Shown here: positions 2,560-25,617 of the stretch, in pieces
Position numbering within the stretch: the first letter of the stretch is position 1
Layout of the letters: each line of letters opens with the position of its first letter
Origin: an uncultured beta proteobacterium
Lineage (GTDB): Bacteria; Pseudomonadota; Gammaproteobacteria; Burkholderiales; Nitrosomonadaceae
Direction of reading: 5' to 3'
DNA: 32,000 nucleotides
Assembly: GCA_942493155.1 (NCBI GenBank)
Contig: OW818677.1
Location: forward strand, 2,169,302-2,201,301
Made by a program: the position numbers and the translations under genes
Notes under the pieces: model-generated
What the model was told of the DNA's origin: nothing
The model's database searches: none
What the model saw: the letters and a program-made list of their open reading frames with translations, nothing else

Positions 2560-2582
2560 ATACTCATTAAGAAATTAATCAT

Positions 2583-4973: not shown

Positions 4974-4993
4974 CTTTTCATACTGAAAAATAA

Positions 4994-8508: not shown

Positions 8509-8515
8509 ATCACCA

Positions 8516-9622
8516 CTAATAAATAACGACTGAGCGAATCGATTCGCCCGCTTTCATCAAACGAAAACCTTCATTAATGTCATCCAGCGATAGGGTATGG
8601 GTGATCAGTGAATCAATATCGATTTTTCCTTCCATATACCAGTCTACAATTTTAGGCACATCAGTGCGGCCTCGTGCGCCACCAAAGGCAGAACCTTCCC
8701 ACTTTCTCCCTGTAACCAACTGGAAAGGGCGAGTGCTAATTTCAGCGCCAGCTTCTGCTACGCCAATAATAATGCTGCGCCCCCAGCCTTTATGCGTGCA
8801 CTCCAGGGCTTGCCGCATGACCTTGGTATTGCCGATACACTCGAAGCTGTAATCAGCGCCTCCGTTCGTCAGTTGCACGATCGCATCTACAATATTGGGT
8901 ACATCATTGGGGTTGATGAAATGCGTCATGCCAAATTTTCTCGCCATCGCTTCTCGCTGGGGATTGATATCGATACCGATAATTTTATCCGCACCCACCA
9001 TGCGAGCACCTTGTATGACATTCAAACCGATTCCACCCAGGCCAAACACAACGACATTGCTGCCAGCTTCCACCTTGGCGGTATAGATGACTGCGCCAAT
9101 GCCGGTGGTTACTCCGCAGCCGATGTAACATACTTTATCAAAAGGAGCATCTTCACGAATCTTTGCCAATGCTATTTCAGGTACGACCGTGTAATTGGCG
9201 AAAGTGGATGTTCCCATGTAATGCAGTAATGGTTTTCCATCCAGAGAAAATCGCGATGTGTTGTCCGGCATTACGCCACGCCCCTGCGTACTGCGGATGG
9301 CTTGGCACAGGTTGGTTTTTTGCGAAAGACAAAACTTGCATTCCCGGCATTCCGGAGTGTACAAAGGAATGACATGGTCACCCTTGCGTAAGGATTTTAC
9401 ATCGGGACCGACATCAACCACCACGCCAGCGCCTTCGTGACCCAGAATGGCTGGAAACAAACCTTCCGGATCCGCACCTGAAAGTGTGTAATAGTCAGTG
9501 TGACAAATACCGGTCGCTTTGATTTCGACCAATACTTCACCAGATTTCGGACCTTCCAGATCAACGTCTTCTATTGTTAACGGTTCACCGGCCTTCCAGG
9601 CAACAGCAGCTCTTGTTTTCAT
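8516..9622 (-). CDS. frmA: S-(hydroxymethyl)glutathione dehydrogenase / class III alcohol dehydrogenase
   Basis: [21 protein letters not shown] structural-zinc cluster and GLGGIGL Rossmann motif. 368 aa. Confidence 0.92.
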
Positions 9623-10128
9623 TAGAACATTTCCTTTTTATTGTTGCATAGATGCGCAAGGAGCCCATGACTGGCTTCTTCAACCATATTCAATACCAGT
9701 TCGAAACCTTCGTGTCCACCAAAATAGGGGTCGGGCACCTCTGCATTGGAATTGGCGCTTTTGCTATATTGCATGAATAACTGAATCTTGCTCAGGTGCT
9801 GTTGAGGGCTCTTTTGTTGCAATAAACTAAGATTCTCTTTGTCCATCGCAAGAATATAGTCGAACTCTTCAAAATCGCTGGCTTGAACGGCACGTGCACG
9901 CAAATCGTGCATTTGATAACCACGTTTCAAAGCAGTGTGCTGGGCGCGTTGATCCGGCGGATTGCCAATGTGATAAGCATGAGTGCCCGCAGAATCAACT
10001 TCAATCATATGATCAACCCCCGATTCTTTCACAAAATGTCTGAATACAGCATCGGCTGTGGGTGATCGGCAGATATTGCCCATGCAGACAAATAAAACTT
10101 TGGTTTTTTTAAGTGCTTCAGATTTCAT
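9622..10128 (-). CDS. Low-molecular-weight protein tyrosine phosphatase
   Basis: [14 protein letters not shown]-loop (CX5RS), then DSAGT and DPYFG. Confidence 0.85.
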
Positions 10129-10697: not shown

Positions 10698-11057
10698 TTG
10701 AGGAGGTAAGTATGGTAAAGAAAGCATTTACTCTACTCTCATAGGTCCGAATTTTCAAAGTTACAATAATTTTATTTCAAAAGCAGCTGAGGTCAATGAT
10801 TTAAAAAATCATGAGATGAAGAATTTGCATAGAAATTACAGAAGGTTATTATCCTAGCCCTGAAATAGCATGTAATGCTGCTGTGAAAGTCCATTATAAC
10901 GGCGCATATTCTGCTAACCCTGCGCCTTACAATGGACAAGATAATTATTATGATTGTCATTATAAGGATGCTAATGGTAATCCTACTTATATTTCTGGTT
11001 ATTCTCCCCGTTCGGCTGGTTGCCCTGATAACTAGAGCTTACTCAGAAATTCAGCGA

Positions 11058-11939
11058 TCAGATATGCGCTACCAAGTAAGAATTCCGGTTTGAGATGAAC
11101 TGGCAGGCGTGCGCAAACGGAATTTCTCTGGGGATGCACTTTTTTGTCACCCAAAATGCTATTTTGGCGGCAAGATTCCTCAGACAAATAAAAACCCGCA
11201 CCAAGATGAGCAGGTTCATAACCAGGAAGATACTATTAATCCATGCGGCAGACGTATCAGCGCGCTTGGCTCGAATATTGTTGAGCCGATAACCATACTT
11301 TCCTTGGCCAAACTTTCCTTCAATTGGAATGCGTTCGCGATATTCCTGCCGGCGTTGTGCTTTCAGGCGATTGATCTCATCTTTGTTTTCAGGTGTACTC
11401 TTTGGCGGACGTCCCAGTGGTTTTCCTGAGAAGCGGATGTGCTTGCGTTCCAGATAGCTGCGATTATCACGTGAACCATATAGCGTGTCGGCAATGACGA
11501 CTTCTGGATAATAGCCGTAACGCTTTTTGTAGGCTTCAACTTGCGCTTCAAGATCATGGCCTTCATGTTGCGCATCCCAGTGCAGCTTGTCGACATGCGC
11601 CAATCCTTTGTCTGTCAGACTCACGCTTATTTTGGCGCCAAATTCCACTGCCTTGCCTTGCTTTCCCCTGATAATGGGCCGAAGATACGGCTGACTGATA
11701 CTGACAATGCGATCATCACAGCGTCTGGTGTTGGTTTTGTACATTGCATAATGTTGTTGGTACAGATGGGGTAATACCCAGTAGCGGCGTAACAACCCAT
11801 TGGGTAACGGTATGGGTGTGCCAAGCGGATATTCCGTCAGCATCGCTTCAATATGATTTAAATTCCGCTGCAGGAATTGCAATTGCTGCCTGATACCGGC
11901 ACGGCGTTTTCTGTTGGATGGCCGTCTCAGCTTGACCAA
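11058..11939 (-). CDS. IS5-family transposase, DDE catalytic part (-1 frame relative to the upstream part)
   Basis: VVIADTLYGSRDN and RIPIEGKFGQGK resemble DDE_Tnp_1 motifs. It overlaps the upstream ORF by 13 nt in the -1 frame, with no obvious slippery heptamer. Confidence 0.7.
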   Translation of the reverse strand: MVKLRRPSNRKRRAGIRQQLQFLQRNLNHIEAMLTEYPLGTPIPLPNGLLRRYWVLPHLYQQHYAMYKTNTRRCDDRIVSISQPYLRPIIRGKQGKAVEFGAKISVSLTDKGLAHVDKLHWDAQHEGHDLEAQVEAYKKRYGYYPEVVIADTLYGSRDNRSYLERKHIRFSGKPLGRPPKSTPENKDEINRLKAQRRQEYRERIPIEGKFGQGKYGYRLNNIRAKRADTSAAWINSIFLVMNLLILVRVFICLRNLAAKIAFWVTKKCIPREIPFAHACQFISNRNSYLVAHI

Positions 11940-12670
11940 GCTGAGATAGCTTTTCTGGCAATCTCGCGATAAGTGCGCGGCTTCTTTCTCTGTGCCCGGT
12001 TACTTTTGGCATGCAGTTCATCAATGATACGCTCACTCAATTCACGCGCTTCGTTCAGCAGTCCAAGATCTGTCGGATAGCGTATGGCCTGTTCTGCAAC
12101 GGTGGCATCCAGTATTAATTTGCCGTGATTGCGCGGCTGCTCATCTGCCAAAGATTGCTCTGCTTCCATTGCGGTGGCCGCGCCGCTGCTACCTACCTCA
12201 CCGCTATTTGACACATCATCGTCGTTGTCATCATCACTTGCTTTGACTGACTTCTTTGTCCGCCTAGGTTCAACCGTTTCGATGATCGACTCATGAAATT
12301 CATCGAATACCGTCTGACCCATGCGCTTGCGTATCTCAACCAGTAATGATGACGCAAACGGCGCCTTCGCTTGAAAACCTTTCAGGCCAATAAAATATTG
12401 CAGGTACGGATTCTCTCGAATCTGTTCAACCGTCTCTTCATCTGAAATCGATAATTTATGTTTAATAATCACCGCTCCAATCACAATCCTGGCATCTTTG
12501 GCTGGGCGGCCCAGATTTGAACATAACGTCTTATAGTAGCTCTCGGACAACTCATCCCACGGTAGGCAATCCCTCAGTTTTACCCAGCGATTAGTGGGAT
12601 CTAGAATCATGCCGGGCGGTGTATCAAATCCTTCGAGGGGCAGTTGCTTTTGGCTGACGTAACGAATCAT
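11927..12670 (-). CDS. IS5-family transposase, N-terminal part (InsH/DUF772-like)
   Basis: NRWVKLRDCLPWDEL...GRPAKDARIVIGAVIIKHKLSISDEETVEQIRENPYLQYFIGL is an InsH-type N-terminal domain. Confidence 0.8.
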   Translation of the reverse strand: MIRYVSQKQLPLEGFDTPPGMILDPTNRWVKLRDCLPWDELSESYYKTLCSNLGRPAKDARIVIGAVIIKHKLSISDEETVEQIRENPYLQYFIGLKGFQAKAPFASSLLVEIRKRMGQTVFDEFHESIIETVEPRRTKKSVKASDDDNDDDVSNSGEVGSSGAATAMEAEQSLADEQPRNHGKLILDATVAEQAIRYPTDLGLLNEARELSERIIDELHAKSNRAQRKKPRTYREIARKAISAWSS

Positions 12671-13451
12671 AGTGCACGGTTTTTGGTGTTAATTCACATA
12701 TTTATGTGCACTATTCTACCAAAAAACAAAATATTAATAAATTCAATCAGCTAGTTATACTTTTTGAGTAAGCTCTAACTATGTATTCAATGGCACTCTA
12801 TGTGCTCTTCAAGGTAATGCTGAAAGTCGTGTTCCAACTGCCTCCGATTGGGATTCCAAGCAATCATTGCTGAATGATCAGCGCTTTGTACCTGAACTGA
12901 ATGAGAAGGGCGCGGATATTCCAACCGGCATACCCACCTTAACGCCCAACCAGAAAAAACAGCTCGGCCTTGATTCCGTACCTACCAAGGATTCAAGCGG
13001 CAATATCACAGGGCGCGAAGATACCACTACCGAAATTGAAGCCGTAGACGCTGGAACCTCTGATAATCCCGGCCGTGTCATCATCAAGGAAACTAAGACC
13101 ACGATTAAATATGACACCAACAACACGCAGATAAGCAGCACCACCAATACCAGCTACAGCTCTCAGCCACAAGAAAAAGAGCCGTCACAATTCACCATAT
13201 CATTCGACACCGTACCCGAAGCCACATTACCCAGTTACAGCGTCCCTAATACCTTCAACTCAGATAGTTGGGGTTCTGGCACTTGTCCGCCCAATATCGA
13301 CGTATCACTAACCAATCATTCTTTCACCATACCGACACAGCCAATCTGTGACACGGCGGAAATGATTAACCCATTTACGCTGTTACTGGCTTCAATCATC
13401 AGTGTCTACATTATCGCGGGGGTTCGTGGCGGCTCTGCCACGTAAAAAACT

Positions 13452-13742
13452 ATGTTCAATATCTTAATTCCTTTAGGTGCTTTTCTTTCGGCTGGTGTTG
13501 GTTTCCTTGCTGTACGTGCTTTGATGGGTGTAGGTGTCGGCTTAATCAGTTATGGCGCGGTCGGTGTTGTTCTGCAGCAGCTTCTAACCTTAGCGCAAGG
13601 CCATTACAACAACATTCCAGCATTCGCGCTGCAAATCGCCGGACTCTCAGGCATTGGCCAAGCGCTCGGCATGATCGCTGGTGCCATTACTTTCAGGGCT
13701 ACTTTTATGTTGATGTCTAAACTCGGAGTGATTCCAAAATGA
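13452..13742 (+). CDS. Inovirus g6p-like small membrane protein (DUF2523-like), unit A
   Basis: 96-aa hydrophobic protein directly upstream of zot, overlapping it by 4 nt. Differs from 22383-22673 at one residue. Confidence 0.7.
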   Translation: MFNILIPLGAFLSAGVGFLAVRALMGVGVGLISYGAVGVVLQQLLTLAQGHYNNIPAFALQIAGLSGIGQALGMIAGAITFRATFMLMSKLGVIPK

Positions 13743-14707
13743 CGATTATCGTTTTAACGGCTACGCCGGGCTGTGGCAAAACCAATCACGCGGTATGGAG
13801 CTATATTAAACCAGCGGTGGAAGCGGGGCGTGTTGTCTATGTTTGCGGTGTTCCGGATTTAAAGCTAATGCATATCAAGCTATCCATTGCCAAGCTCAAT
13901 ACCTGGGCAGAACGCACACCCCTAGACCCGGAAGAACCAGAAGGAAAGCAAAAACTAAACAACATCTTGGAAGGTAGTCTTATTGTAGTGGATGAAGCTG
14001 CTTATCCTTGGCCGGCGGTTGACCTGAAAGACCCTCCGGAATATATCAAATACTTAAGCCAGCATAGAAAGCACGGCTTAGACTTCCTTGTTATTACTCA
14101 ATCACCGAAGTTCGTGCATCCGTTTGTATTGGAAAATGCCGACCGGCATATCCATTTAAGCCAAGAGTGGTCAGGCTCAAAAAGCTACGAATGGCCGGAA
14201 TACTGCGCCAATCCAAAACTCAAGACCAACAAGCAGAATGCAGTCAAAAAGCCGTACCGGCTCGTTAAGGAAGCATTCCCGCTGTATTACTCAGCAAGTC
14301 TGCATGTGGAAAAACCGAAGCGGGCGATACCTAAAATGGTCTATGCGGCTATTTTTCTGCTCTTTGCAGTGCCAGCTATGGCCATGTTCACATATGGCCG
14401 TGTAACTGAACGCCTTGAGTCTCCAATGGCATCGACTGAAACTGAAAAAAACACAATAACGAAGCAGAGGGGTGATATACCGCCAGCAAGCTTAATACCG
14501 GTCTCTCAGCCTGTCGTAGCATTGCCGAGTACAAAAGAATCGCTCTCAATGTTATCAAATGCGGTTGACTGGTCACAAGTGGCCGCCTGTGTTGCAAATA
14601 AAACTAATTGCGTTTGTTATGGGCATCAGGCTCAACGTTTGAATATTGTTCCAGATACTTGCAATGCTGCAATAAGTTATGGGTGGATCGTTCCTAAAAA
14701 ACTTTAA
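13739..14707 (+). CDS. Zot/pI-like filamentous phage assembly ATPase, unit A
   Basis: Walker A ATPGCGKT, Walker B LIVVDEA and a central TM helix (VYAAIFLLFAVPAMAMFTY). About 26 differences in 322 aa from the unit B copy, counted by eye. Confidence 0.85.
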   Translation: MTIIVLTATPGCGKTNHAVWSYIKPAVEAGRVVYVCGVPDLKLMHIKLSIAKLNTWAERTPLDPEEPEGKQKLNNILEGSLIVVDEAAYPWPAVDLKDPPEYIKYLSQHRKHGLDFLVITQSPKFVHPFVLENADRHIHLSQEWSGSKSYEWPEYCANPKLKTNKQNAVKKPYRLVKEAFPLYYSASLHVEKPKRAIPKMVYAAIFLLFAVPAMAMFTYGRVTERLESPMASTETEKNTITKQRGDIPPASLIPVSQPVVALPSTKESLSMLSNAVDWSQVAACVANKTNCVCYGHQAQRLNIVPDTCNAAISYGWIVPKKL

Positions 14708-14790
14708 AGGAATAATAAAACATACGTGAAAATTATGCTTTATTGAAACATGTCTTCAATCATTCCATAGCCAGAAAAAATCGAAGACAT

Positions 14791-14839
14791 GCTTATAGCT
14801 TATAGCTTATAGCTTATAGCTTATAGCTTATAGCTTATA
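14791..14839. repeat. Perfect heptanucleotide tandem repeat (GCTTATA)x7
   Basis: Read directly. Seven uninterrupted copies, preceded by an imperfect hairpin (CATGTCTTC...GAAGACATG). Confidence 0.95.
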
Positions 14840-14990
14840 GTTAAATATTAAAATTTAATACGGAAAAGAATCTTATATTTTCTAAAAAACTTACTTTTTT
14901 GTATTACATATAACAAATATAGTGTAATAATAGCGGAGATCTCCTATAAATGAGTAGTGAGCTCTACTCGGTAAAAAGGTGATTGTCTTA

Positions 14991-15024
14991 AAAAGCCGTA
15001 TTGCGTAAGCATTTCGGCTTTTTT
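14991..15024 (+). terminator. Terminator-like hairpin with T-run in the unit A intergenic region
   Basis: AAAAGCCG...CGGCTTTTTT, with an inner TGC-GTAA-GCA stem. Confidence 0.5.
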
Positions 15025-15055
15025 CATTTATGATTCTTTAAGAATCCATGCAATA

Positions 15056-15089
15056 GTAGCAGCAAATATCAGGTAGCAGCAAATATCAG
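15056..15089. repeat. Perfect 17-bp tandem direct repeat (GTAGCAGCAAATATCAG x2)
   Basis: Read directly. Possibly an iteron or protein-binding site. Confidence 0.9.
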
Positions 15090-15257
15090 GAATGCGCACA
15101 CAGTTTTTTACAATAAACATAAAAATAAACTTCAGAAGATAATCTCGCCACAAATTGTTGTGAATTTCAATAAGTTTCTAGATCTTTTAAACCGTAAAAT
15201 TTTTTAGCCTGTAGCCCCAAGGGTCGCGCCGCCGACCGGCGCGAAGGGTATGCACCC

Positions 15258-15328
15258 AAAAGGGGGCATGCTGCCCGATCCCTAACGCAGTCTATCTTTA
15301 TTCTGATTTCCCCCTTATTGCTAAACAG
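15258..15328. repeat. Copy 1 of an approximately 70-bp element shared by the two cargo regions
   Basis: AAAGGGGGCATGCTGCCCGATCCCTAACGCAGTCTATCTTTATTCTGATTTCC... aligns with 25365-25432 at roughly 80 percent identity by eye. A GC-rich hairpin (TCGCGCCG-CCGAC-CGGCGCGA, 15224-15244) precedes it. Confidence 0.8.
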
Positions 15329-15386
15329 AATTTGATTTTGATTCTGTGAGGTATAATCCTGGAAACAATCTTAAGAGGATAAAATC

Positions 15387-15593
15387 ATGGAGCTTTCCGC
15401 CGTATTAACACCAGCGCCAGAAGGTGGTTATGTTGCCTTCAATCCTGAAACCGGAACGACCACGCAAGGCGACACAGTTGAAGAAGCTTTGGCTAATTTG
15501 GCTGAGGCAACAGAACTCTTCCTTGAAGAATTTCCGATGACCATATCTGCCCGCTCATTATTGACAACCTTTCAAGTTGCAGAGCATGCCTAA
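15387..15593 (+). CDS. hicB: HicB-family antitoxin (UPF0150-type, 68 aa)
   Basis: PEGGYVAFNPE..GTTTQGDTVEEALANLAEA is HicB/UPF0150-like. The adjacent hicA remnant supports the call. Confidence 0.75.
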   Translation: MELSAVLTPAPEGGYVAFNPETGTTTQGDTVEEALANLAEATELFLEEFPMTISARSLLTTFQVAEHA

Positions 15594-15808
15594 ATTGCCT
15601 GTCATCTCAGCGGCAGAAGTGATTAGGGCGTTTGAACGATTAGGTTTTACCACATAGTACGCCAGCGAGGCAGCCATATCGTTCTTCGTAGGGGTTCTTC
15701 TGGCTGTGTTGTACCCAACATCGCGAACTGAAAACGGGAACTTTGAGCGGCGTGCTTAAGCAAGCCGGGGTATCTCCAGATGAATTCGTTAAAGCATTGC
15801 GTGCTTAA
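15586..15808 (+). pseudogene. hicA: hicA mRNA-interferase toxin gene, disrupted (one in-frame stop and at least two frame changes)
   Basis: Three frames give MPKLPVISAAEVIRAFERLGFTT*, VRQRGSHIVLRRG and HRELKTGTLSGVLKQAGVSPDEFVKALRA. Joined, they make a complete HicA. Confidence 0.8.
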
Positions 15809-15953
15809 TTTTCCTGTATTGAAAAACGTATTTATATTTTTGTTGCTCGTCTTTAATTTTTTATTTTTAGGACTTGCACAAATCTAGAGAATGCACCGCC
15901 AACGACGGAAAGATAGAAGTTGTAAATTTATGAATTTTGATTTGGGAGTCTTG

Positions 15954-17063
15954 ATGTCAAAATATGTAGAAGAACTGGAAACAGAATTAAACGATGAGCG
16001 TAATGTTGAAGATGAGGCTGCTGAAGATGAAGCGGAAACTTTTGGTCGCTATGATATCACTTCCTATGGAATAGATTTTGATGTCGCAGGTTTAGTCAGG
16101 AGAATCGAAAAAGGTTTAATTTTTATTCCACCTTTTCAGAGAAATTTCGTCTGGAAACTTCCTGAATCTTCTCGTTTAATAGAATCATTATTGTTAGGTT
16201 TACCAGTCCCAGGAATATTTTTAGCTCAAGAGGCAGATACTGGAAGAATGTTAGTTATAGATGGCCAACAAAGACTTTTATCCTTAAAATTCTTTTTTGA
16301 CGGGGTATTTAATCCTATAGAAGGCGAGAAAAGACAAAGAGTTTTTAAGCTATCGAAAGTTCAACCACAGTATGAAGGAAAGTCATATAAAGACCTTGCC
16401 CCAAATATTCAAAACGATTTAGAGAATTGCGTTATTCATGCGACTGTTGTAAAACAGGACGCTCCTGAAGATGACGACACTAGTATTTACCATATTTTTG
16501 AGCGCTTGAATTCAGGTGGAAGAAAATTATCTCAGCAAGAAATTAGAACCGCAATTTATCATGGAAATTTTATCAATAAAATTCATGATCTTAATTCTCA
16601 TAAATCATGGCGCCTTATTTATGGCCGCATCAACGATAGGATGAAGGATCAGGAGTTAATTATTCGCTTTTTTGCAATGTTAAATAACTATTCTTCATAC
16701 GAAGCTCCAATGTACGACTTTTTGAATAAATTTGCTAAGAAACATCGTAACGATAAAAATCAAATTCTAAGTGAGTACTCGGAACACTTTAAAGTTTGTT
16801 GTGATATTTTTCTAAAAGCCATTGATGGAAGACCATTTCGTCGAACCGTTGCAATTAATGTCGCATTATTCGAAGCTGCTATGGTAGCTCTTACAGAAAA
16901 AATACGCCGTGATGGCATACCAACTTCAGAAGTTGTTAGGAATAAATACAATGCTTTATTAATGGATAATGAATTTATTTCAGCTATTTCACAATCTACA
17001 GGCAATAAATCTACTGTACTCACTCGAATTGATACAGCAAAAAAAATATTCCTGAATGATTGA
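15954..17063 (+). CDS. DUF262 (ParB-like NTPase/nuclease superfamily, GmrSD N-terminal type) protein without a DUF1524 nuclease domain
   Basis: IPPFQRNFVW, VIDGQQRL and FERLNSGGRKLSQQEI are DUF262 hallmarks. ATG 15954 is preceded by GGGAG, and an upstream in-frame start at 15891 is possible. No H-x-x-P/HNH-like C-terminal motif was seen. Confidence 0.8.
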   Translation: MSKYVEELETELNDERNVEDEAAEDEAETFGRYDITSYGIDFDVAGLVRRIEKGLIFIPPFQRNFVWKLPESSRLIESLLLGLPVPGIFLAQEADTGRMLVIDGQQRLLSLKFFFDGVFNPIEGEKRQRVFKLSKVQPQYEGKSYKDLAPNIQNDLENCVIHATVVKQDAPEDDDTSIYHIFERLNSGGRKLSQQEIRTAIYHGNFINKIHDLNSHKSWRLIYGRINDRMKDQELIIRFFAMLNNYSSYEAPMYDFLNKFAKKHRNDKNQILSEYSEHFKVCCDIFLKAIDGRPFRRTVAINVALFEAAMVALTEKIRRDGIPTSEVVRNKYNALLMDNEFISAISQSTGNKSTVLTRIDTAKKIFLND

Positions 17064-17554
17064 TGAAAAACGTAAATCTTAATCAACAATATCAAAAGAT
17101 ATTGCATTTAATAAATAATACGGATAAATCTACTCATGGAGATATAGAGTTACAGGGACATTGGGGAAAGTATTTGTGCGTTCTAGTAGCAGGTTTTCTG
17201 GAGAATGCTATTATCGCCGTTTACTCAGATTTTGTTTCTGGCGCAGCATCTCCTCATGTCTCACAATTCACATTAGTAAACTTAGAAAAGATTCAAAACC
17301 CAAAGACTGAAAAATTTATACAAGTTGCTATTCAATTTAAGAAAGACTGGGGCGAGGAATTAAAAAATTATTTCATTAGTCATCCGGACAAAAAAGCAGC
17401 CATCGATTCGATTATGACTAATAGACATTTAGTTGCACATGGTAAATCAACAAGTATATCTGTACACAGAGTGAGAGAATATTTAACTCTCAGTATAGAG
17501 GTAATAGAATTTATAGAGGATATGTGTGCAAATAAAAAAAGCAAATTAAGATGA
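17063..17554 (+). CDS. HEPN-domain protein (MAE_28990-like), putative RNase effector
   Basis: Rx4H motif in TNRHLVAHG near the C-terminus. HWGKYLCVLVAGFLEN resembles the AHWEGF helix of MAE_28990-type HEPN domains. The start ATG overlaps the DUF262 stop (TGATG). Confidence 0.7.
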   Translation: MKNVNLNQQYQKILHLINNTDKSTHGDIELQGHWGKYLCVLVAGFLENAIIAVYSDFVSGAASPHVSQFTLVNLEKIQNPKTEKFIQVAIQFKKDWGEELKNYFISHPDKKAAIDSIMTNRHLVAHGKSTSISVHRVREYLTLSIEVIEFIEDMCANKKSKLR

Positions 17555-17559
17555 TTTGA

Positions 17560-17988
17560 CTAAAGAAAGCTTCTTTGTAATATCATTCCAAATCGGCTTT
17601 CAAGTACCAGCTGACGCCTATAAAAATCAGCCTTAATTTCAAGTCTATTAATTGCCTCGCTATGCTTCTCATTATCTTTTTTTAAAATTTCGATTTCACG
17701 TTTTAAACTAGAAACCTGCTGAACTTGCCAGAATAATGCCCTAATTTCATGAGGAGTTAGACCGCGCCGCCATTCGGGTATATATAATAGATTATTTCTG
17801 AAGTAGTGCCCATTCCAATCTGTACCCAATAAAGCACTCGCTTCACCTAGAATATACAATCTCAAGAGACGGGTTGCTGATTCTGAGATCTTCTTAGTTC
17901 CTTTTTTCCATTGCTTAATTGTTTTTTGACTTTCTCCTGTAATTCTTTCTATTTCTTGGCAGTCGATGTTTTTTATTAAATCTTCCAT
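17560..17988 (-). CDS. 142-aa phage regulatory protein (HTH-like N-terminus, coiled-coil C-terminus), last gene of unit A
   Basis: Gap-free paralogue of 26658-27086, with 91 of 142 residues identical by hand alignment. Shared blocks are EIERITGE, WKKGTK, RLLRL, PEWR, PHEIRALFW and KADFYRRQLVLESRFG. Confidence 0.6.
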   Translation of the reverse strand: MEDLIKNIDCQEIERITGESQKTIKQWKKGTKKISESATRLLRLYILGEASALLGTDWNGHYFRNNLLYIPEWRRGLTPHEIRALFWQVQQVSSLKREIEILKKDNEKHSEAINRLEIKADFYRRQLVLESRFGMILQRSFL

Positions 17989-18199
17989 TTTTTCTGCCTA
18001 AAGGCAACATCATTACAAAATTTTGGAAACTAATTCTGTCGAATAACGTAATGTTTAATATTGATTTTAAAGGTTTATATCACTTAATGGGTTTGGGGAT
18101 ATTCATCAAGATGTGAATATACTGGAAGAGTTGTTGAAGGGAATTTGAATCTGGGTAAAAGTTTATAAAATTTTCTGCTTTCAAAGCTGAGAATATATC

Positions 18200-18577
18200 C
18201 TATTTTACATAATACAAATTGATCTCACTCCCTTTTTCTGACATAGCAGCATGGGCAGGGGAGGAAGTCATTGAACTACCACCGAAAATTAATGCCGCCG
18301 CCGCTATAGTCGCAGCTCTAGAAAAACAACTTTTAAAAATTTTTATCTTTTCTTCGTCTTTCTCAGTAACAAGATTACTTGCAGCAATAACTTCAAGTCT
18401 ATCCGCACCAATATAGTCAGCGAGTTTTATACAAATATCTGCGGGCAAGCCTCTTCTTCCGCTTTTAACTATCCTTATATAACTATCTGGAATCCCTAGA
18501 ATTCTTGCTAATTCTATTTGCTTTCCGGCTTTTTCCTCACCCAATTCTAGGTATTTTTTCATTTCCATAGTATTCAT
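18200..18577 (-). CDS. XRE-family HTH repressor with a hydrophobic C-terminal segment
   Basis: QIELARILGIPDSYIRIVKSGRRGLP is a Cro/C1-type HTH. The gene is divergent from the replication operon. Its last nine codons lie inside the dif-like site. Confidence 0.75.
   Translation of the reverse strand: MNTMEMKKYLELGEEKAGKQIELARILGIPDSYIRIVKSGRRGLPADICIKLADYIGADRLEVIAASNLVTEKDEEKIKIFKSCFSRAATIAAAALIFGGSSMTSSPAHAAMSEKGSEINLYYVK
18202..18229 (-). other. dif-like Xer recombination site at the junction of units A and B
   Basis: The reverse complement is AGTGAGATCAA-TTTGTA-TTATGTAAAAT. Its XerD arm matches E. coli dif (TTATGTTAAAT) at 10 of 11 positions. Homology with the 27339 region stops exactly here. 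Confidence 0.65.
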
Positions 18578-18697: not shown

Positions 18698-18985
18698 ATG
18701 AGAAACATTAAAAATAGTTATTTTCGAGCAATTCATGAAGTAACTTGCAACGGTAAATTACCGGAGTATTCCGATTTGTGGCGCTGCTACCATCCTACTG
18801 CTTTGATGCTGGATAGCGATTATTGCCTATTTGCAGATTCAAGCCGGTTTTCGACGACGACGCAGGAGGAGGAGATAACCGGCAGCGCACCTAAAAAAAT
18901 ACTTTACGTCCCAGTTACACGTAAAGTTAGTCTCACAGATGAGACAAAAGAGCAAAAATTGAACGCTGGAATGATTCAAAGATGA
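18698..18985 (+). CDS. Hypothetical 95-aa phage protein upstream of Rep
   Basis: ATG preceded by AAGGAAG. Its stop overlaps the Rep start (ATGA). Confidence 0.5.
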   Translation: MRNIKNSYFRAIHEVTCNGKLPEYSDLWRCYHPTALMLDSDYCLFADSSRFSTTTQEEEITGSAPKKILYVPVTRKVSLTDETKEQKLNAGMIQR

Positions 18986-19992
18986 TGAATTTAATTCCTG
19001 TCTTTGTCGACTATTTAACTATCCGACAAGTGCATGACGGCGGCAAACTGCCAATCATTAATGGTGGTAGGGTGCTCAGAATTGATTCGGATGGCGAGAT
19101 TGAATATACCGTGGATACTCGGCAAGGCTTGGAAGGTAGTTTTGATAGCCGGGTAGAAGTTCGCTGTGATGGTCATCAAGTGGAATTCAGTGGCAATATT
19201 TCTCGCTATGGCCGACAAGATAATCTTTTCGGTTTTACTTTCGCGGATAGTATCGAACGGATTAATGAACTGCTAAAAACTCTGGGTTTGCCGCCTTTTA
19301 CTGCTGGCAAATTATACAAATTTGCTGATTCTGGCTGGACATGGACAGGTGCCAGAGTCAGCCGGATAGACATAACCTGCAATTATGTCACCGGCTCTAT
19401 GGTCGACTCCGAAGCATTACTCCGAAATATGGCAGGTCACCATATTGGCCGCCAAAAAGGCTCCCTAGCGGTTAATGGCGCAACAGTTGAATATGGCCGG
19501 GGTTCCAAATATGTTTACGGCAAACTCTACTGTAAAACCACTGAACTAAAAAAACACCGCTCCAAAAAATCCGGTCAACACGTCACTGAGGAAGTTATCG
19601 ACTTTTGCCAATCTCTCGGAGTAATACGAGAAGAGTTTACCCTTAAATCGCGCTTTCTTCTACAAAACGGCCTGGCTTTTCTAGGCGCAATAACCGACTC
19701 ATTATTGATTGAGGTTTATATGAACAGAACACAATTACAACGACTGGAGAACGTGAAATACGAGAATTTCAGCGATTTACCAGCACACCTAAGAGCAACG
19801 TATGTCAGTTGGAAATATGGTTACCCAATCGATCTTTCACGGGCTGCATTTTATCGTCATCGTAAAGCTTTGCTTTCCTACGGTATAGATATCTCCATTC
19901 CAAACAACGTTCAAACGATGCCAATTAAAGTGAAAACTATCGAACTGGCTGCACTTACAGCGCCTGACTGGTACATCAAGAAATACGCTTAA
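18982..19992 (+). CDS. Rolling-circle replication initiation protein (filamentous phage gene II/X, Phage_CRI-like)
   Basis: Call rests on position, size (336 aa), and N-terminal DYLTIRQ and RIDITCNY blocks resembling Phage_CRI-type initiators. Not verifiable without a search. Confidence 0.6.
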   Translation: MMNLIPVFVDYLTIRQVHDGGKLPIINGGRVLRIDSDGEIEYTVDTRQGLEGSFDSRVEVRCDGHQVEFSGNISRYGRQDNLFGFTFADSIERINELLKTLGLPPFTAGKLYKFADSGWTWTGARVSRIDITCNYVTGSMVDSEALLRNMAGHHIGRQKGSLAVNGATVEYGRGSKYVYGKLYCKTTELKKHRSKKSGQHVTEEVIDFCQSLGVIREEFTLKSRFLLQNGLAFLGAITDSLLIEVYMNRTQLQRLENVKYENFSDLPAHLRATYVSWKYGYPIDLSRAAFYRHRKALLSYGIDISIPNNVQTMPIKVKTIELAALTAPDWYIKKYA

Positions 19993-20364: not shown

Positions 20365-20439
20365 TTTCAGCCTATACGCTCTTAGTTGGGGCGTATGGGG
20401 TGCAATTCCGCACCATTTAAACTTAAAGGAGTATTCAAT

Positions 20440-20715
20440 ATGTTTAGCAAAATAAAAAACTGGTTAATTTCTGCAAAAGACGCTGTGATAGCGCTCGGTC
20501 GCCGTGTAGTACAAAAAACCAAACGTTATGTTGCCGCTTTCTTCCTAACCTTCGGTATCACTTTTGGTTTTCTCTCTCCGGTTCACGCTGACGTACCCGC
20601 CGGTGTAACCACTGCCATCACAACCGCCGCAACCGATGTTGCAACCGTAGGTGCCGCCGTCATTCTCGTGTTCGTCGGCATCAAAGTCTGGAAATGGATT
20701 AAAGCCGCTCTGTAA
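20440..20715 (+). CDS. Inovirus major coat protein precursor
   Basis: ATG preceded by AAAGGAG. Leader ends in VHA. The predicted mature peptide is DVPAGVTTAITTAATDVATVGAAVILVFVGIKVWKWIKAAL: acidic N-terminus, hydrophobic core and basic C-terminus. Confidence 0.8.
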   Translation: MFSKIKNWLISAKDAVIALGRRVVQKTKRYVAAFFLTFGITFGFLSPVHADVPAGVTTAITTAATDVATVGAAVILVFVGIKVWKWIKAAL

Positions 20716-21013: not shown

Positions 21014-21087
21014 TGGAACTCTGGATTGTTGACTTGGGTTATATGCTGGCTTTCTTAGGTGCGCTATGGCTTATCTTTACCGCTTAA
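21013..21087 (+). CDS. Possible 24-aa hydrophobic minor coat protein (g7p/g9p-like micro-ORF)
   Basis: TAATG overlap with the preceding stop. Product is MELWIVDLGYMLAFLGALWLIFTA. Below the ORF-track size cut-off and found by hand. Confidence 0.3.
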   Translation: MELWIVDLGYMLAFLGALWLIFTA

Positions 21088-22376
21088 TAGTTATTTTAAT
21101 CATTGCATTACCAAACCTTGTTAATGCTCAATCTGCGCCAGTCGGTGCCATCGATCTGGCCGGATGGATCAAGGGCGCTGACGGTGCTTATTCTCGGGCT
21201 TTCGCTGATGGTGCCGGATCCAGAGCAACACCAACCAATTCCACAATAAATAGCACATCTACCGCGTTGGTTCAGACATCCAAAGGCTTGCAGTCCTTCG
21301 ATATCCAAAAAATTGCTGCTGTCGATGTGAACCGGGTAGGCGCCGCGGTGGCCAATTTAGCCAAGCGGGTTGGACCAGTCGGCATGACCTTGACGGCCGC
21401 ATCACTGGTTTGTGAACTGACTACTATCTGCAATCAAGCCGGACAATGGATGCTCGGTGCCGATCCTGCTTTTGAAGGTTTTCCAACCACAACACCAAAT
21501 TATAAATGGGGTGGTTATGGTGGTTATTATCCTAGCCCTGAAATAGCATGTAATGCTGCTGTGAAAGTCCATTATAACGGCGCATATTCTGCTAACCCTG
21601 CGCCTTACAATGGACAAGATAATTATTATGATTGTCATTATAAGGATGCTAATGGTAATCCTACTTATATTTCTGGCTATTCTCCCCGTTCGGCTGGTTG
21701 CCCTGATAACTATGTATTCAATGGCACTCTATGTGCTCTTCAAGGTAATGCTGAAAGTCGTGTTCCAACTGCCTCCGATTGGGATTCCAAGCAACCATTG
21801 CTGAATGATCAACGCTTTGTACCTGAACTGAACGAGAAGGGAGCGGATATCCCGACCGGCGTTCCCACATTAACGCCCAACCAAAAAAAGCAGCTTGGCC
21901 TTGATTCTGTTCCAACCAAAGACAGCAGCGGCAACATAACAGGGCGCGAAGATACCACTACCGAAATTGAAGCCGTAGACGCGGGAACCTCTGATAATCC
22001 CGGCCGCGTCATTATTAAGGAAACCAAGACCACGATCAAATATGACACCAATAATACGCAGATAAGCAGCACCACCAATACCAGCTACAGCTCGCAGCCA
22101 CAAGAAAAAGAGCCGCCACAATATACGATTTCATTTGATAGCGTGCCAGAAGCAACGCTTCCAAGTTACAGCGTACCCAATACCTTCAGTTCAGATAGTT
22201 GGGGCTCCGGCACTTGTCCGCCCAATATCGATGTATCGCTAACCAATCATTCTTTCACCATACCGACACAGCCAGTCTGTGACACGGCGGAAATGATTAA
22301 CCCTTTCACGCTTCTTTTGGCTTCAATCATCAGCGTCTACATTATCGCGGGGGTTCGTGGCGGCTCTGCTACGTAA
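21066..22376 (+). CDS. g3p-like minor coat/adsorption protein (intact copy)
   Basis: Signal peptide (LIIALPNLVNA), Cys-containing N-terminal domain, T/S/N-rich linker and C-terminal TM anchor (LLLASIISVYIIAGV). Lies upstream of g6p and zot. Confidence 0.7.
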   Translation: MAYLYRLIVILIIALPNLVNAQSAPVGAIDLAGWIKGADGAYSRAFADGAGSRATPTNSTINSTSTALVQTSKGLQSFDIQKIAAVDVNRVGAAVANLAKRVGPVGMTLTAASLVCELTTICNQAGQWMLGADPAFEGFPTTTPNYKWGGYGGYYPSPEIACNAAVKVHYNGAYSANPAPYNGQDNYYDCHYKDANGNPTYISGYSPRSAGCPDNYVFNGTLCALQGNAESRVPTASDWDSKQPLLNDQRFVPELNEKGADIPTGVPTLTPNQKKQLGLDSVPTKDSSGNITGREDTTTEIEAVDAGTSDNPGRVIIKETKTTIKYDTNNTQISSTTNTSYSSQPQEKEPPQYTISFDSVPEATLPSYSVPNTFSSDSWGSGTCPPNIDVSLTNHSFTIPTQPVCDTAEMINPFTLLLASIISVYIIAGVRGGSAT

Positions 22377-22382
22377 ATAACT

Positions 22383-22673
22383 ATGTTCAATATCTTAATT
22401 CCTTTAGGTGCATTTCTTTCGGCTGGTGTTGGCTTTCTAGCAATCCGTGCATTGATGGGCGTAGGTGTCGGCCTTATCAGTTATGGCGCGGTCGGTGTTG
22501 TCCTGCAGCAGCTTCTAACCTTGGCGCAAGGCCATTACAACAATATTCCAGCCTTCGCGCTGCAAATCGCCGGACTCTCTGGCATTGGCCAAGCGCTCGG
22601 CATGATCGCCGGTGCCATTACTTTCAGGGCTACTTTCATGTTGATGTCTAAACTCGGAGTGATTCCAAAATGA
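22383..22673 (+). CDS. Inovirus g6p-like small membrane protein (DUF2523-like), unit B
   Basis: 96-aa hydrophobic protein that overlaps the zot start. Confidence 0.7.
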   Translation: MFNILIPLGAFLSAGVGFLAIRALMGVGVGLISYGAVGVVLQQLLTLAQGHYNNIPAFALQIAGLSGIGQALGMIAGAITFRATFMLMSKLGVIPK

Positions 22674-23638
22674 CAATTATCGTTTTAACGGCTACGCCGG
22701 GCTGTGGCAAAACCAATCACGCGGTATGGAGGTATATAAAACCAGCGGTGGAAGTGGGGCGTGTTGTTTATGTTTGCGGTGTACCTGACTTAAAGCTCAT
22801 GCACATCAAGCTATCGATAAATAAGCTCAATACCTGGGCAGAACGCACACCCCTAGACCCGGAAGAACCGGAAGGAAAGCAAAAACTAAACAACATCTTG
22901 GAAGGTAGTCTTATTGTAGTGGATGAAGCTGCTTATCCGTGGCCGGCCGTTGACTTGAAAGACCCGCCCGAGCATATCAAATACCTAAGCCAACATAGAA
23001 AGCACGGCCTGGACTTCCTTGTTATTACTCAGTCACCGAAGTTTGTGCACCCGTTTGTACTGGAAAACGCTGATCGGCATATCCATTTAAGCCAAGAGTG
23101 GTCAGGCTCAAAAAGCTATGAATGGCCGGAGTACTGCGCCAATCCAAAGCTGAAAACCAACAAGCAGAATGCAGTCAAAAAGCCGTACCGGCTCATCAAA
23201 GAAGCATTCCCGCTGTATTACTCAGCAAGTCTGCATGTGGAAAAACCGAAGCGGGCGATACCTAAAATGGTCTATGCGGCAATTTTCCTGCTCTTTGCAG
23301 TGCCAGCTATGGCGATGTTCACTTATGGCCGTGTAACCGAGCGGCTTGAGTCTCAAATCGCATCCACAGAAACCGAAAAAAACACAATAGCGAAGCAGGG
23401 GGGTGATACGCCGTCAACAAGCGCAATACCGGTATCTCAGCCTGTCATTGCATTACCGAGTACAAAACAATCGCTCTCAATGCTTTCTGATGCGGTCGAT
23501 TGGTCGCAGGTCGCGGCCTGTGTGGAAAACAAAACCAACTGCGTTTGTTATGGGCATAAAGCGCAACGCTTATCCATTGTTCCGGAAACCTGCCAAGCGG
23601 CCGTGAAGTATGGATGGATTGATACTAAACAACTTTAA
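22670..23638 (+). CDS. Zot/pI-like filamentous phage assembly ATPase, unit B
   Basis: Walker A ATPGCGKT, Walker B LIVVDEA and a TM helix. Confidence 0.85.
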   Translation: MTIIVLTATPGCGKTNHAVWRYIKPAVEVGRVVYVCGVPDLKLMHIKLSINKLNTWAERTPLDPEEPEGKQKLNNILEGSLIVVDEAAYPWPAVDLKDPPEHIKYLSQHRKHGLDFLVITQSPKFVHPFVLENADRHIHLSQEWSGSKSYEWPEYCANPKLKTNKQNAVKKPYRLIKEAFPLYYSASLHVEKPKRAIPKMVYAAIFLLFAVPAMAMFTYGRVTERLESQIASTETEKNTIAKQGGDTPSTSAIPVSQPVIALPSTKQSLSMLSDAVDWSQVAACVENKTNCVCYGHKAQRLSIVPETCQAAVKYGWIDTKQL

Positions 23639-23648
23639 AGGAGTAATT

Positions 23649-23819
23649 ATGAAACAGACGCAGGAAAGATTTAATTATCTAATGGAAACACTTGATGAGC
23701 AGAGAATGTCAATTCTTCTTGATGACTTAACACCCGAGGAAAGAGAAGCTACCAATGCAATAATTGCCGATCTTGAAGCAGAACTCGAAGAATATGGTTT
23801 AAATATCTCCAGTAGCTGA
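23649..23819 (+). CDS. Small, strongly acidic 56-aa protein
   Basis: ATG preceded by AAAGGAG. Product is MKQTQERFNYLMETLDEQRMSILLDDLTPEEREATNAIIADLEAELEEYGLNISSS. Unit A keeps only a degenerate trace of its 5' end (14708-14730). Confidence 0.5.
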   Translation: MKQTQERFNYLMETLDEQRMSILLDDLTPEEREATNAIIADLEAELEEYGLNISSS

Positions 23820-23895
23820 TATCCGAAGAAGGTTCCGAGGCTTGACCGAAGGTCAAACGTAGGAATTCCGGATTCAGCGTCAACGGGTTACAACT

Positions 23896-23925
23896 GGCGC
23901 TCGGCCATGCCGAGCCGCCGCTTTT
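23896..23925 (+). terminator. GC-rich hairpin followed by a T-rich tract after the structural operon
   Basis: GGCGCTCGG-CCATG-CCGAGC(C)GCC, then GCTTTTACGTTT. A smaller hairpin, TTGACC-GAA-GGTCAA, lies at 23842-23856. Confidence 0.5.
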
Positions 23926-24121
23926 ACGTTTAAAATCCCCTTTTTTTACAGAACGGTTTATATTTCATGTTGCTGCGGTAAAAATCCATTCTTTGCTCTT
24001 GCTTGTTAAACCAAGTTTCGTCCTAAATATCGATTCTATTTTTGAAATGCAATTTTAAATTCCATCAGAATTGTTATCATGTAATATCGCATTATCTTTG
24101 TATCTTCAATGAGGCGATCAT

Positions 24122-24850: not shown

Positions 24851-24916
24851 ACAAATAATATTGCTTTAACTGAACTCTTTTTTACATGTAAGCTATATCT
24901 AATTGGTATTTCTACA

Positions 24917-25336: not shown

Positions 25337-25364
25337 AGCTACAGCTCGAAGTGTATTCTCCCTA

Positions 25365-25432
25365 AAGGGTGCATGCTGTCCGATCCCTAACTCGGTTTAT
25401 CTTTATTCTGACTTCCTCATTTTGCTGAACGA
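25365..25432. repeat. Copy 2 of the approximately 70-bp element shared by the two cargo regions
   Basis: AAAGGGTGCATGCTGTCCGATCCCTAACTCGGTTTATCTTTATTCTGACTTCC... aligns with 15258-15328. Confidence 0.8.
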
Positions 25433-25482
25433 TTTTATTAATAAAGCAAACAAACATCAGTAATAATTTGCACAAGAATTAT

Positions 25483-25608: not shown

Positions 25609-25617
25609 TTTGTTTTA

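Follow-up and report, generated by a model that had tools for sequence, protein, structure and literature searches.

Two overlapping genes carried by a filamentous prophage raise the question of whether they form a new kind of phage defence system or a divergent member of one already described. The genes are located in a 32,000-nucleotide stretch of DNA (the window; contig OW818677.1, positions 2,169,302 to 2,201,301) from an uncultured member of the Nitrosomonadaceae. They encode a DUF262/ParB-like protein (gene A) and a HEPN protein (gene B). A first-pass annotation of the window proposed that they constitute an undescribed defence or abortive infection system. The features of the locus are listed in Table 1.

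Table 1. Features of the A-B locus and its surroundings (positions within the window).
Feature	Position	Strand	Details
zot/pI-like assembly ATPase, unit A	13739..14707	+	Pfam Zot 1.9e-17; left border of cargo slot
HicB-like antitoxin ORF	15387..15593	+	68 aa; Pfam DUF7387 1.6e-6, HicB_lk 0.015; neighbouring cargo, outside the pair
hicA toxin pseudogene	15586..15808	+	Split over three reading frames; stitched 73-aa product matches Pfam HicA_toxin, 8e-18
Presumed promoter region of gene A	15809..15953	+	AT-rich, directly upstream
Shine-Dalgarno-like GGGAG	15944..15948	+	5 nt before gene A ATG 15954; read from sequence
Gene A (ORF1, PD-T4-2A-like)	15954..17063	+	369 aa; ATG 15954, TGA stop 17061-17063
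Stop/start overlap TGATG, genes A/B	17061..17065	+	1-nt overlap; A of ATG 17063 shared with gene A stop
Gene B (ORF2, PD-T4-2B-like)	17063..17554	+	163 aa; small all-alpha HEPN, Rx4H R121-H126
xafT-like gene (VC1465-family Xer activation factor)	17560..17988	-	Right border of slot; convergent with gene B
rstR-like HTH repressor, opens prophage unit B	18200..18577	-	Pfam HTH_3 5.9e-4; PHROG 638, transcriptional regulator, 6.9e-11

Architecture of the two genes and their junction

Gene A was found to possess the full DUF262 signature that had been read from the sequence, with IPPFQRNFVW at residue 58, VIDGQQRL at residue 101 and FERLNSGGRKLSQQEI at residue 182, and with a Pfam match to GmrSD_N/DUF262 (PF03235) of 5.4e-31 over residues 46-202. 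Within these motifs (I-III), residues Q62, R63, W67, D103-R107, F182 and N186 are invariant across 31 homologues. The N-terminal ParB/DUF262 NTPase-type domain (~46-202) is followed by an all-helical C-terminal domain (~205-369), the counterpart of which in Menshen NsnA is the DNA-binding domain termed 'ParBDB'. The protein ends after what is the helical middle domain, with no C-terminal DUF1524 fusion. As the first-pass annotation had claimed, no DUF1524 was identified by Pfam at E<=1, nor was any other nuclease domain.

The AlphaFold model of gene A (pLDDT 85.5) is likewise all helical in its C-terminal half, and its nearest solved structures are BrxU (7.4e-6) and SspE (2e-4), followed by ParB/Noc. 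When solved structures were searched by sequence, only the N-terminus of BrxU and another DUF262 protein were identified. Gene A also matches PHROG 2598 (1.2e-79), and no NCBIfam family was found to match either gene A or gene B. Two other in-frame start codons, ATG 15930 and ATG 15891, are located upstream of ATG 15954. The start at 15930 (377 aa) is the one chosen in public gene calls; ATG 15954 is favoured here because the homologues are 367-369 aa in length and align from residue 1. A promoter scan of the region upstream of gene A (15809-15953) found no consensus sigma-70 site at the thresholds of the scan.

Gene B carries the predicted Rx4H HEPN motif, NRHLVAHG at residue 120, and was matched by the Pfam family HEPN_RiboL-PSP (PF18735) with an E-value of 1.3e-14 and a score of 55 bits (cut-off 28.4). 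Its suggested likeness to HEPN domains of the MAE_28990 type held in part, as the expected HWGKY (residue 33) and GFLEN (residue 44) are present but the score against Pfam HEPN_MAE_28990 (PF18737), at 26.4 bits, is slightly below the cut-off of 26.8. Across 29 homologues, eight residues do not vary (H33, W34, E47, N48, R121, H122, H126, and G127). The predicted model comprises seven helices (pLDDT 91.5). Foldseek returned no significant solved-structure match for it, the best HEPN entry being 4nqf (TM 0.42-0.45, E 6.4), and therefore the evidence for a HEPN domain is the Pfam HMM together with the motif; a search of solved structures by sequence gave nothing meaningful. Gene B is predicted to be an RNase effector.

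The TGATG overlap and the 163-aa reading frame opening at ATG 17063 were read in the sequence as first described, and no separate Shine-Dalgarno sequence is visible for gene B. In relatives the junction takes the form of a 4-nt overlap (13 loci), a 1-nt overlap (4), abutting genes (10) or a gap of 1-6 nt (~20). The translational coupling of genes A and B is real.

Prophage setting and distribution of the pair

The pair is placed between zot and the xafT-like gene of a decayed inovirus prophage, designated unit A, and a second unit (unit B) is present in the window. Inovirus genes identified were those for Zot, the G2P replication protein, coat protein B and DUF2523. Unit A is without a replication module and contains an IS insertion. 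DNA matches between the two units are confined to four segments (10844-11034, 12776-14716 at 90%, 15239-15326, and 17563-18002 at 70%), and thus the A-B pair is without a counterpart in unit B. The zot region of unit A is 90% identical to positions 21707-23647 of unit B, and the xafT-like gene shares 70% DNA identity with the unit B copy at 26660-27100. The match of the latter gene to the NCBIfam model VC1465_fam (5.7e-10, 39 bits) is under the cut-off of 70. A search for dif-like sites at the unit junctions yielded nothing convincing.

The G+C content of the pair is 33.7%, compared with 46.6% for the phage core, the cores of the two units taken separately having 46.8 and 46.4%. This agrees with the first-pass annotation, as do the location in variable cargo of the filamentous prophage, established by unit-to-unit DNA comparison, and the toxin-antitoxin remnant next door, which consists of a HicB-like ORF and a broken hicA. 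The cargo differs between units A and B. A 242-aa cargo protein of unit B was considered as a relative of gene B and rejected, the similarity not being significant (hhalign E 0.23; Csx1_HEPN E 0.096). Both ORFs are intact, and three independent metagenome contigs carry the A-B region at 99.96-100% identity.

A comparable arrangement is known from Vibrio. In the passages covered of a study of XafT-positive 'CTX-I' Vibrio inoviruses, the zot-xafT interval is described as a hypervariable region (pHVR) with defence genes (PMC12715192). As far as those passages describe it, the slot in unit A resembles the pHVR in having its cargo between zot and a convergent xafT-like gene, with the rstR of the next unit beyond, and in being AT-rich, variable and differently loaded in each unit. 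It differs in that the pHVR is described there for Vibrio, whereas the present prophage belongs to Nitrosomonas and its xafT-like match is sub-threshold. PD-T4-2 is absent from the figure-legend abbreviations in the same passages. The zot-xafT defence hotspot of Vibrio inoviruses seems to exist also in filamentous prophages of Nitrosomonas.

The two genes, proposed to act as a unit, were found to occur together in other genomes. Among 61 loci in GTDB genomes that encode a gene B relative, 59 have a gene A relative directly upstream on the same strand, and the other two are cut at a contig end. These loci are found in Proteobacteria, Chloroflexota, Cyanobacteriota, Bacteroidota, Acidobacteriota and other phyla. 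When the flanks of the 59 loci were clustered, no third conserved gene emerged, only gene A fragments and generic ABC-transporter/SDR paralogues. In Cronobacter, Pantoea and a Pseudomonas-labelled MAG, relatives are located at prophage ends or beside integrases or IS elements, and relatives also occur on two IMG/VR contigs. No DNA or protein match to the pair was present in the phage record collection, and plasmids gave only three weak HEPN matches (22-26% identity). A blastn search of all complete E. coli genomes found no DNA match for the pair or for its Cronobacter orthologue.

Relation to PD-T4-2 and other DUF262 systems

The closest described system is PD-T4-2 of E. coli ECOR65, listed as 'DUF262, HEPN' and comprising two CDS in 1540 bp on contig QOYX01000002 at 338334-339873, of which PD-T4-2A corresponds to PF03235 and PD-T4-2B to PF18735 and PF18737 over residues ~7-163 (Vassallo et al., 2022). 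It confers protection against T4, as a clone and also in the native ECOR65 host, and lies outside the TA-like class of systems in that study; the T-even systems of the screen generally protected against T2 and T6 too (Vassallo et al., 2022). The demonstration of T4 protection comes from that work and concerns only the E. coli homologue. The pair in the window shares with PD-T4-2 a two-gene operon of similar length (1601 bp here), an A protein of ~360 aa which is DUF262/ParB-like and has no DUF1524, a B protein of ~163 aa with a HEPN domain of the RiboL-PSP/MAE_28990 type, and a location on a mobile element. The top two HHpred matches of PD-T4-2B, PF18735 and PF18737, are the same families as those of gene B. 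On the other hand, gene B is too divergent for a direct match to PD-T4-2_B, and the pair in the window is carried by an inovirus in a betaproteobacterial ammonia oxidiser.

PD-T4-2 figures in lists of defence systems, and PADLOC carries models for both PD-T4-2_A and PD-T4-2_B; the outcome of a search with these was divided between the two genes. Gene A matched PD-T4-2_A (PDLC04027) at 1.6e-59 over its full length (profile positions 8-361 of 363), but gene B gave no match to the PD-T4-2_B models at E<=1. The Cronobacter orthologue of gene B was also without a match to PD-T4-2_B at E<=1e-10. Two members of the gene B family did match it, namely L060 (6.2e-7, full length) and L055 (1.2e-4), which in turn match the gene B family HMM at 2.6e-25 and 1.3e-32, respectively (Z=1e6). 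The homology of gene B to PD-T4-2_B is therefore transitive only, and as gene B is invisible to these models PADLOC would probably not call the system here. The best PADLOC score of gene A was to NsnA (1e-75, full length, profile positions 20-379 of 385), and in gene A and all relatives tested the NsnA model scored above PD-T4-2_A.

The combination of the two domains had been noted earlier, when Anantharaman et al. (2013) tabulated a 'Ribo L-PSP-HEPN ... operon with ParB'. The gene neighbourhood tabulated there is the one seen here, and a role in intragenomic conflict and defence was predicted for it computationally; that work was bioinformatic only, with no system named and nothing tested. 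Since PD-T4-2 has the same architecture and the HEPN-ParB operon was tabulated in 2013, the description of the pair as an undescribed system is not supported, and it belongs in essence to a system that already has a name. The A-B pair is best regarded, with a probability of roughly 0.78, as a PD-T4-2-type two-gene anti-phage module, carried as cargo of the zot-xafT slot in a decayed filamentous prophage of a Nitrosomonas chromosome.

Other known systems resemble the pair in gene A but differ in the effector. The Type IV restriction enzymes GmrSD, BrxU and SspE, which include the nearest solved structures to gene A, also have an N-terminal DUF262 NTPase with QR, DGQQR and FxxxN motifs followed by a helical domain. 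In these enzymes, however, the effector is a fused C-terminal DUF1524 His-Me nuclease, to which cleavage has been assigned, whereas here the predicted effector is a separate HEPN protein, presumably targeting RNA. The Menshen system, NsnABC, requires the ATPase NsnB and the inPIN-nuclease effector NsnC (Millman, 2022; Li et al., 2025). Gene A has the architecture of NsnA, ParB-DUF262 with a helical ParBDB, but a small HEPN protein stands in place of NsnB and NsnC, for which there is no PADLOC match and no such ORF, nor any ATPase downstream of gene A.

Proposed mechanism and alternative explanations

No mechanism for PD-T4-2 has been reported in the literature searched. A split module consisting of a sensor and an RNase effector is a reasonable reading of the A-B pair. 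Gene A would be the sensor, its ParB/DUF262 NTP-binding domain (QRxxxW, DGQQR, FxxxN) and helical DNA-binding domain recognising a feature of invading phage DNA, perhaps modified DNA or a replication intermediate. NTP binding or hydrolysis may then serve as a conformational switch, as proposed by analogy with the same module in GmrSD, BrxU and SspE. Translational coupling would fix the output of gene B relative to gene A, and the HEPN RNase, whose Rx4H active site would arise on dimerisation, would stay inactive, presumably in a physical complex with its partner, until gene A is triggered. Active gene B could cleave RNA (tRNA, rRNA or mRNA), by which translation would stop and the infection be aborted.

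A more specific version is tentative and rather unlikely. It holds that the large, phylum-spanning DUF262-HEPN clade is a sister of E. coli PD-T4-2 with a function of its own, in which a DNA clamp or sensor of the ParB type, gated by NTP, would license the RNase directly. The inovirus would use it to shield the Nitrosomonas host against lytic phages, or to exclude rival elements, through recognition of a DNA feature that is not the base modification of the T-even type. The HEPN subunit of this clade escapes current PD-T4-2_B models, and its sensor looks more NsnA-like.

The same gene pair could also be a toxin-antitoxin-like addiction module, in which the DUF262 protein constantly neutralises a HEPN toxin and the main role is the stabilisation of the prophage or its cargo, not the arrest of lytic phages. 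According to the background cited, toxin-antitoxin systems often include small HEPN toxins. The larger gene comes first in a tightly coupled pair, and the pair shares its slot with an adjoining, decayed hicAB module and has been kept in unit A despite the lost replication module. However, a 369-aa partner that has a DNA-binding domain and whose NTPase motifs are invariant exceeds what a neutraliser needs, and the homologous PD-T4-2 was selected and validated as phage defence and is not classed as TA-like. The nucleotidyltransferase of HEPN-MNT modules is also absent, no such family being found by Pfam in gene A or gene B, and the partner is instead a DUF262 protein. An addiction module is considered unlikely on these grounds. 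Such a module would be compatible with an abortive-infection side effect.

T4, T2 and T6 phages have modified DNA, and it is conceivable that the ParB-like DUF262 protein is a nuclease or nickase acting on modified phage DNA in the manner of Type IV restriction, with the HEPN protein only a regulator or adaptor. This explanation would suit a system selected with T4 in a screen where T-even coverage generally extended to T2 and T6; among solved structures, the Type IV enzymes BrxU and SspE come closest, and the partner was called a 'ParB nuclease' by Anantharaman et al. (2013). It is nevertheless quite improbable given that gene A is without the DUF1524 to which cleavage is assigned in GmrSD, BrxU and SspE, and that the Rx4H catalytic dyad of gene B is invariant across phyla, which argues for gene B being an active RNase. 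Descent from Menshen, with NsnB and NsnC lost and an unrelated HEPN gene alongside by chance, would account for NsnA being the best full-length PADLOC match of gene A. Yet no ATPase or NsnC-like gene follows the pair, the next gene being xafT-like and on the opposite strand, and a HEPN partner is present in all 59 testable loci of many phyla with a conserved overlapping junction. The A subunits paired with a B subunit that does match PD-T4-2_B also score higher on NsnA, and therefore the NsnA model is simply broader. In view of this linkage, the junction and the breadth of the model, a Menshen remnant was rejected as effectively refuted. It is also very improbable that the pair is inert, decaying cargo of a dead prophage which has lost expression and function. 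The state of unit A, with its missing replication module and its IS insertion, the neighbouring hicA pseudogene and the promoter scan without a consensus site are in line with such cargo, but neither ORF is truncated, all catalytic motifs are preserved, and the region is near-identical across three separate metagenome assemblies.

The main value of the finding lies in annotation, in that the pair is to be labelled a PD-T4-2-type defence system and not a new system. Current PADLOC profiles see only half of the clade because the B subunit is missed, and with the A subunit in addition ranked under Menshen NsnA, such pairs are probably under-counted or mislabelled. Little work exists on the phage defences of the ammonia oxidiser Nitrosomonas. 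The alignments of genes A and B supply invariant residues for mutation, by which it may be probed how a ParB-like NTPase controls a HEPN RNase in PD-T4-2.

Architecture and conservation of the DUF262–HEPN pair

Two co-directional genes were found, ORF1 (A, DUF262/ParB-like) and ORF2 (B, HEPN), in which the stop codon of the former and the start codon of the latter share one base (TGATG). Every motif quoted for the two proteins in the first-pass annotation was found where it had been placed. The start of ORF1 is ambiguous, with further in-frame ATGs at 15930 (377 aa; used by public gene calls) and 15891 (the longest, 390 aa). However, the ATG at 15954 is likely the true start, because homologues are 367–369 aa in length and align from residue 1, and because a Shine-Dalgarno-like GGGAG precedes it.

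Residues 46–202 of ORF1 match GmrSD_N/DUF262 (5.4e-31), as the first-pass annotation had proposed; neither DUF1524, whose absence it had also noted, nor another nuclease family was detected by Pfam at E ≤ 1. The three DUF262 motifs (Q62-R63...W67, D103-G-Q-Q-R107 and F182...N186) show no variation across 31 aligned homologues. The N-terminal half of the AlphaFold model (mean pLDDT 85.5) is alpha/beta and the C-terminal half entirely helical; among solved structures the model matched BrxU best (7.4e-6), followed by SspE (2e-4) and ParB/Noc CTPases. The same "ParB-DUF262 + ParBDB" architecture is seen in NsnA of Menshen, a three-gene defence system (NsnA, the ATPase NsnB and the effector NsnC).

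ORF2 matches the Pfam family HEPN_RiboL-PSP (1.3e-14; 55 bits, cut-off 28.4). Its Rx4H residues R121, H122, H126 and G127 are invariant in 29 homologues, as are H33, W34, E47 and N48, which upholds the Rx4H HEPN assignment. HEPN_MAE_28990, to whose domains one helix had been likened, scores slightly under the Pfam threshold. The predicted structure, a seven-helix bundle (pLDDT 91.5), had no significant PDB match by Foldseek, the best HEPN entry being 4nqf (TM 0.42–0.45, E 6.4); the HEPN assignment is therefore based on HMM and motif rather than on a fold match.

About 200 ORF2 relatives of 155–170 aa are detectable. Co-occurrence of the two genes was borne out when GTDB genomes, one for each species, were scanned and gave 61 loci with an ORF2 relative in many phyla; an ORF1 relative (33–74% identity) lies upstream on the same strand in 59 of these, nearly always immediately so, and the other two are cut at a contig end. 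The junctions comprise 4-nt overlaps (n = 13), 1-nt overlaps (n = 4), abutting genes (n = 10) and 1–6 nt gaps (n = ~20), indicating that the coupling noted in the window is a family trait. Clustering of flanking ORFs revealed no third conserved gene, only A fragments and generic ABC-transporter/SDR paralogues. At one locus (L026, Nisaea sp. MAG, about 2058–5997) the DUF262 gene 5' of the HEPN gene is apparently in two parts ~3 kb apart, which suggests insertion or pseudogenisation; truncated or frameshifted A genes, possibly assembly artefacts, also occur at L002, L010, L022, L034, L035 and L040.

Inovirus units and their cargo

The window contains two tandem inovirus units, of which unit B is complete (see table). 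Phage-core matches of unit A to unit B are limited to 10844–11034 and 12776–14716 (90%). The intervening IS element is inserted at a point corresponding to 21707–21712, inside the pIII-like gene of unit B, and its two transposase ORFs possibly represent a single gene with a frameshift. Unit A has no repressor, replication or coat genes and is thus a defective remnant. The chromosomal flanks (1–10128 and 27802–31976) encode S-formylglutathione hydrolase, class III alcohol dehydrogenase, LMW phosphotyrosine phosphatase, a PEP-CTERM protein and an RND efflux pump. By exact sequence match these flanking genes occur in Nitrosomonas sp. genomes and MAGs, and the phage genes likewise match Nitrosomonas sp. 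exactly. No clear dif-like site was found at the prophage junctions.

Coordinates of features in the window
Feature	Position	Strand	Remarks
IS element, unit A	11035-12775		between the two segments matching unit B
IS transposase ORF	11058-11939		DDE_Tnp_1_2
IS transposase ORF	11927-12670		DUF772
Unit A cargo	14717-17562		followed by xafT-like gene, 70% identity to unit B copy
HicB-like ORF	15387-15593		intact, 5' of hicA pseudogene
hicA toxin pseudogene	15586-15808		three frames, two frameshifts; stitched product Pfam HicA, 8e-18
GGGAG before ORF1	15944-15948	+	Shine-Dalgarno-like; direct reading
DUF262–HEPN pair	15954-17554	+	two co-directional ORFs; direct reading
ORF1	15954-17063	+	369 aa; ATG 15954, TGA 17061-17063
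ORF2	17063-17554	+	163 aa; ATG 17063
Unit B rstR-like repressor	18200-18577		
Unit B G2P replication protein	18982-19992		
Unit B coat protein B	20386-20715		
Unit B pIII-like gene	21066-22376		
Unit B DUF2523	22383-22673		
Unit B Zot	22670-23638		
Unit B cargo	23648-26657		
Unit B cargo ORF	24122-24850	+	
Unit B cargo ORF	24917-25336	+	
Unit B cargo ORF	25752-26477	-	
Unit B xafT-like gene	26658-27086		

With inovirus genes confirmed and the pair placed between zot and the xafT-like gene (VC1465-family Xer activation factor) of unit A, its description as filamentous-prophage cargo stands. The cargo also includes the HicB-like ORF and the broken hicA, in keeping with the toxin–antitoxin remnant reported beside the pair, and the claimed AT-richness was evident (33.7% GC; about 46.6% in the phage core). 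A 2025 study of Vibrio inoviruses (PMC12715192) describes a 1.9 ± 1.3 kb hypervariable zot–xafT region with anti-phage systems. This layout is the same as that in the window, so the location appears to be a known hotspot type, with a betaproteobacterium as the host in this case.

In other genomes, too, relatives of the pair are carried by mobile elements: that of Cronobacter adjoins a phage integrase, that of Pantoea ananatis has a P2-like prophage and IS elements as neighbours, that of a Pseudomonas-labelled MAG is at a prophage end adjoining Fic and an AcrIF11-like gene, and two IMG/VR viral contigs carry others. No Zot, G2P or XafT homologues were found at these loci, and inovirus carriage was seen only in the window element and three metagenome contigs (99.96–100% identical).

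The unit B cargo occupies the same slot and is equally AT-rich (34% GC). None of its ORFs received an assignment from Pfam, PADLOC or NCBIfam. The 242-aa protein has an Rx4H-like "TRDLFAH" motif and HEPN hints below threshold (Csx1_HEPN, E 0.096; hhalign against the ORF2 family, E 0.23). The 139-aa ORF has, on reading of its translation, a signal-peptide-like hydrophobic N-terminus, and the 241-aa ORF matches PHROG 36961 (1.7e-13) and has hydrophobic stretches, suggesting a membrane protein. Given their zot–xafT position, these ORFs are candidates for uncharacterised defence or exclusion functions, and are arguably more novel than the pair. An 88-nt element (15239–15326 and 25344–25430; 83% identity) with a GC-rich hairpin (GGGCAGCATGCCC) occurs within the otherwise unrelated cargo of both units, and could be a terminator or a small RNA, or could mark a boundary where recombination exchanges cargo.

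Relation to PD-T4-2 and possible mode of action

The proposal that the system is undescribed was not sustained. PD-T4-2 of E. coli ECOR65 was reported as "DUF262, HEPN", two CDS over 1540 bp, with PD-T4-2A assigned by HHpred to PF03235 and PD-T4-2B to PF18735 (97.8%) and PF18737 (96.9%) over residues ~7–163; it conferred protection from T4 on E. coli K-12, and T4 plaquing returned when it was deleted from ECOR65 (Vassallo et al., 2022). Families, gene order and sizes are the same in the window. A later review tabulates PD-T4-2 under DUF262 and under PF18735, the Menshen paper places it among DUF262 systems without DUF1524, which it calls largely uncharacterized, and a "Ribo L-PSP-HEPN ... operon with ParB" had been tabulated previously (Anantharaman et al., 2013). 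We therefore regard the pair, with a probability of about 0.78, as a divergent PD-T4-2 family member whose place in the inovirus is a defence slot of a known kind.

ORF2 matched no PADLOC model at E ≤ 1, and its Cronobacter orthologue none at E ≤ 1e-10. However, distant family members at two of the GTDB loci match PD-T4-2_B (L060, 6.2e-7, full length; L055, 1.2e-4) as well as the ORF2-family HMM (2.6e-25 and 1.3e-32, respectively; database size set to one million), so that homology of ORF2 to PD-T4-2_B is supported transitively rather than directly. No DNA-level relative of the pair was found in complete E. coli genomes.

ORF1 matches NsnA (1e-75) and PD-T4-2_A (1.6e-59) end to end, and NsnA outscored PD-T4-2_A for every HEPN-linked A protein compared (the window pair and loci L001, L041, L045, L046, L055, L057, L060 and L062), including those whose partner matches PD-T4-2_B; most HEPN partners in this set were missed by the PD-T4-2_B models. 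This ranking thus reflects a broader NsnA model, not Menshen membership, which was excluded as neither an NsnB ATPase nor an NsnC effector lies downstream; that the pair is a Menshen remnant is the least probable of the readings weighed. In automated annotation, this HEPN-linked clade is probably under-called or labelled partial Menshen. An addiction module of toxin–antitoxin type, as a tightly coupled pair beside a hicA remnant might be read, is unlikely, and a DNA-targeting system would have as its nuclease a protein with no Pfam nuclease family, which is somewhat less likely again. Dead cargo, next to invariant motifs in both proteins, is very improbable. None of these fits the evidence as well as the PD-T4-2-type reading.

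A literature search found no published mechanism for PD-T4-2. In GmrSD, BrxU and SspE, DUF262 acts as a sensor of modified DNA, and NTP hydrolysis turns on the attached effector. HEPN Rx4H domains are dimeric RNases whose targets in defence systems are often tRNA anticodon loops or mRNA. From these roles, established in other systems, we infer a model in which A would bind a feature of phage DNA, an NTP-dependent conformational change in A would release or activate a B dimer, and RNA cleavage would lead to translation arrest. For the pair itself, the analysis shows the domain identities, the invariant catalytic residues, the coupling and the co-occurrence. The initial idea of a DUF262 sensor with a HEPN RNase is reasonable, although the system is not an undescribed one. 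What value the pair retains lies in the blind spot of annotation tools at subunit B and in the mechanism of the PD-T4-2 family.
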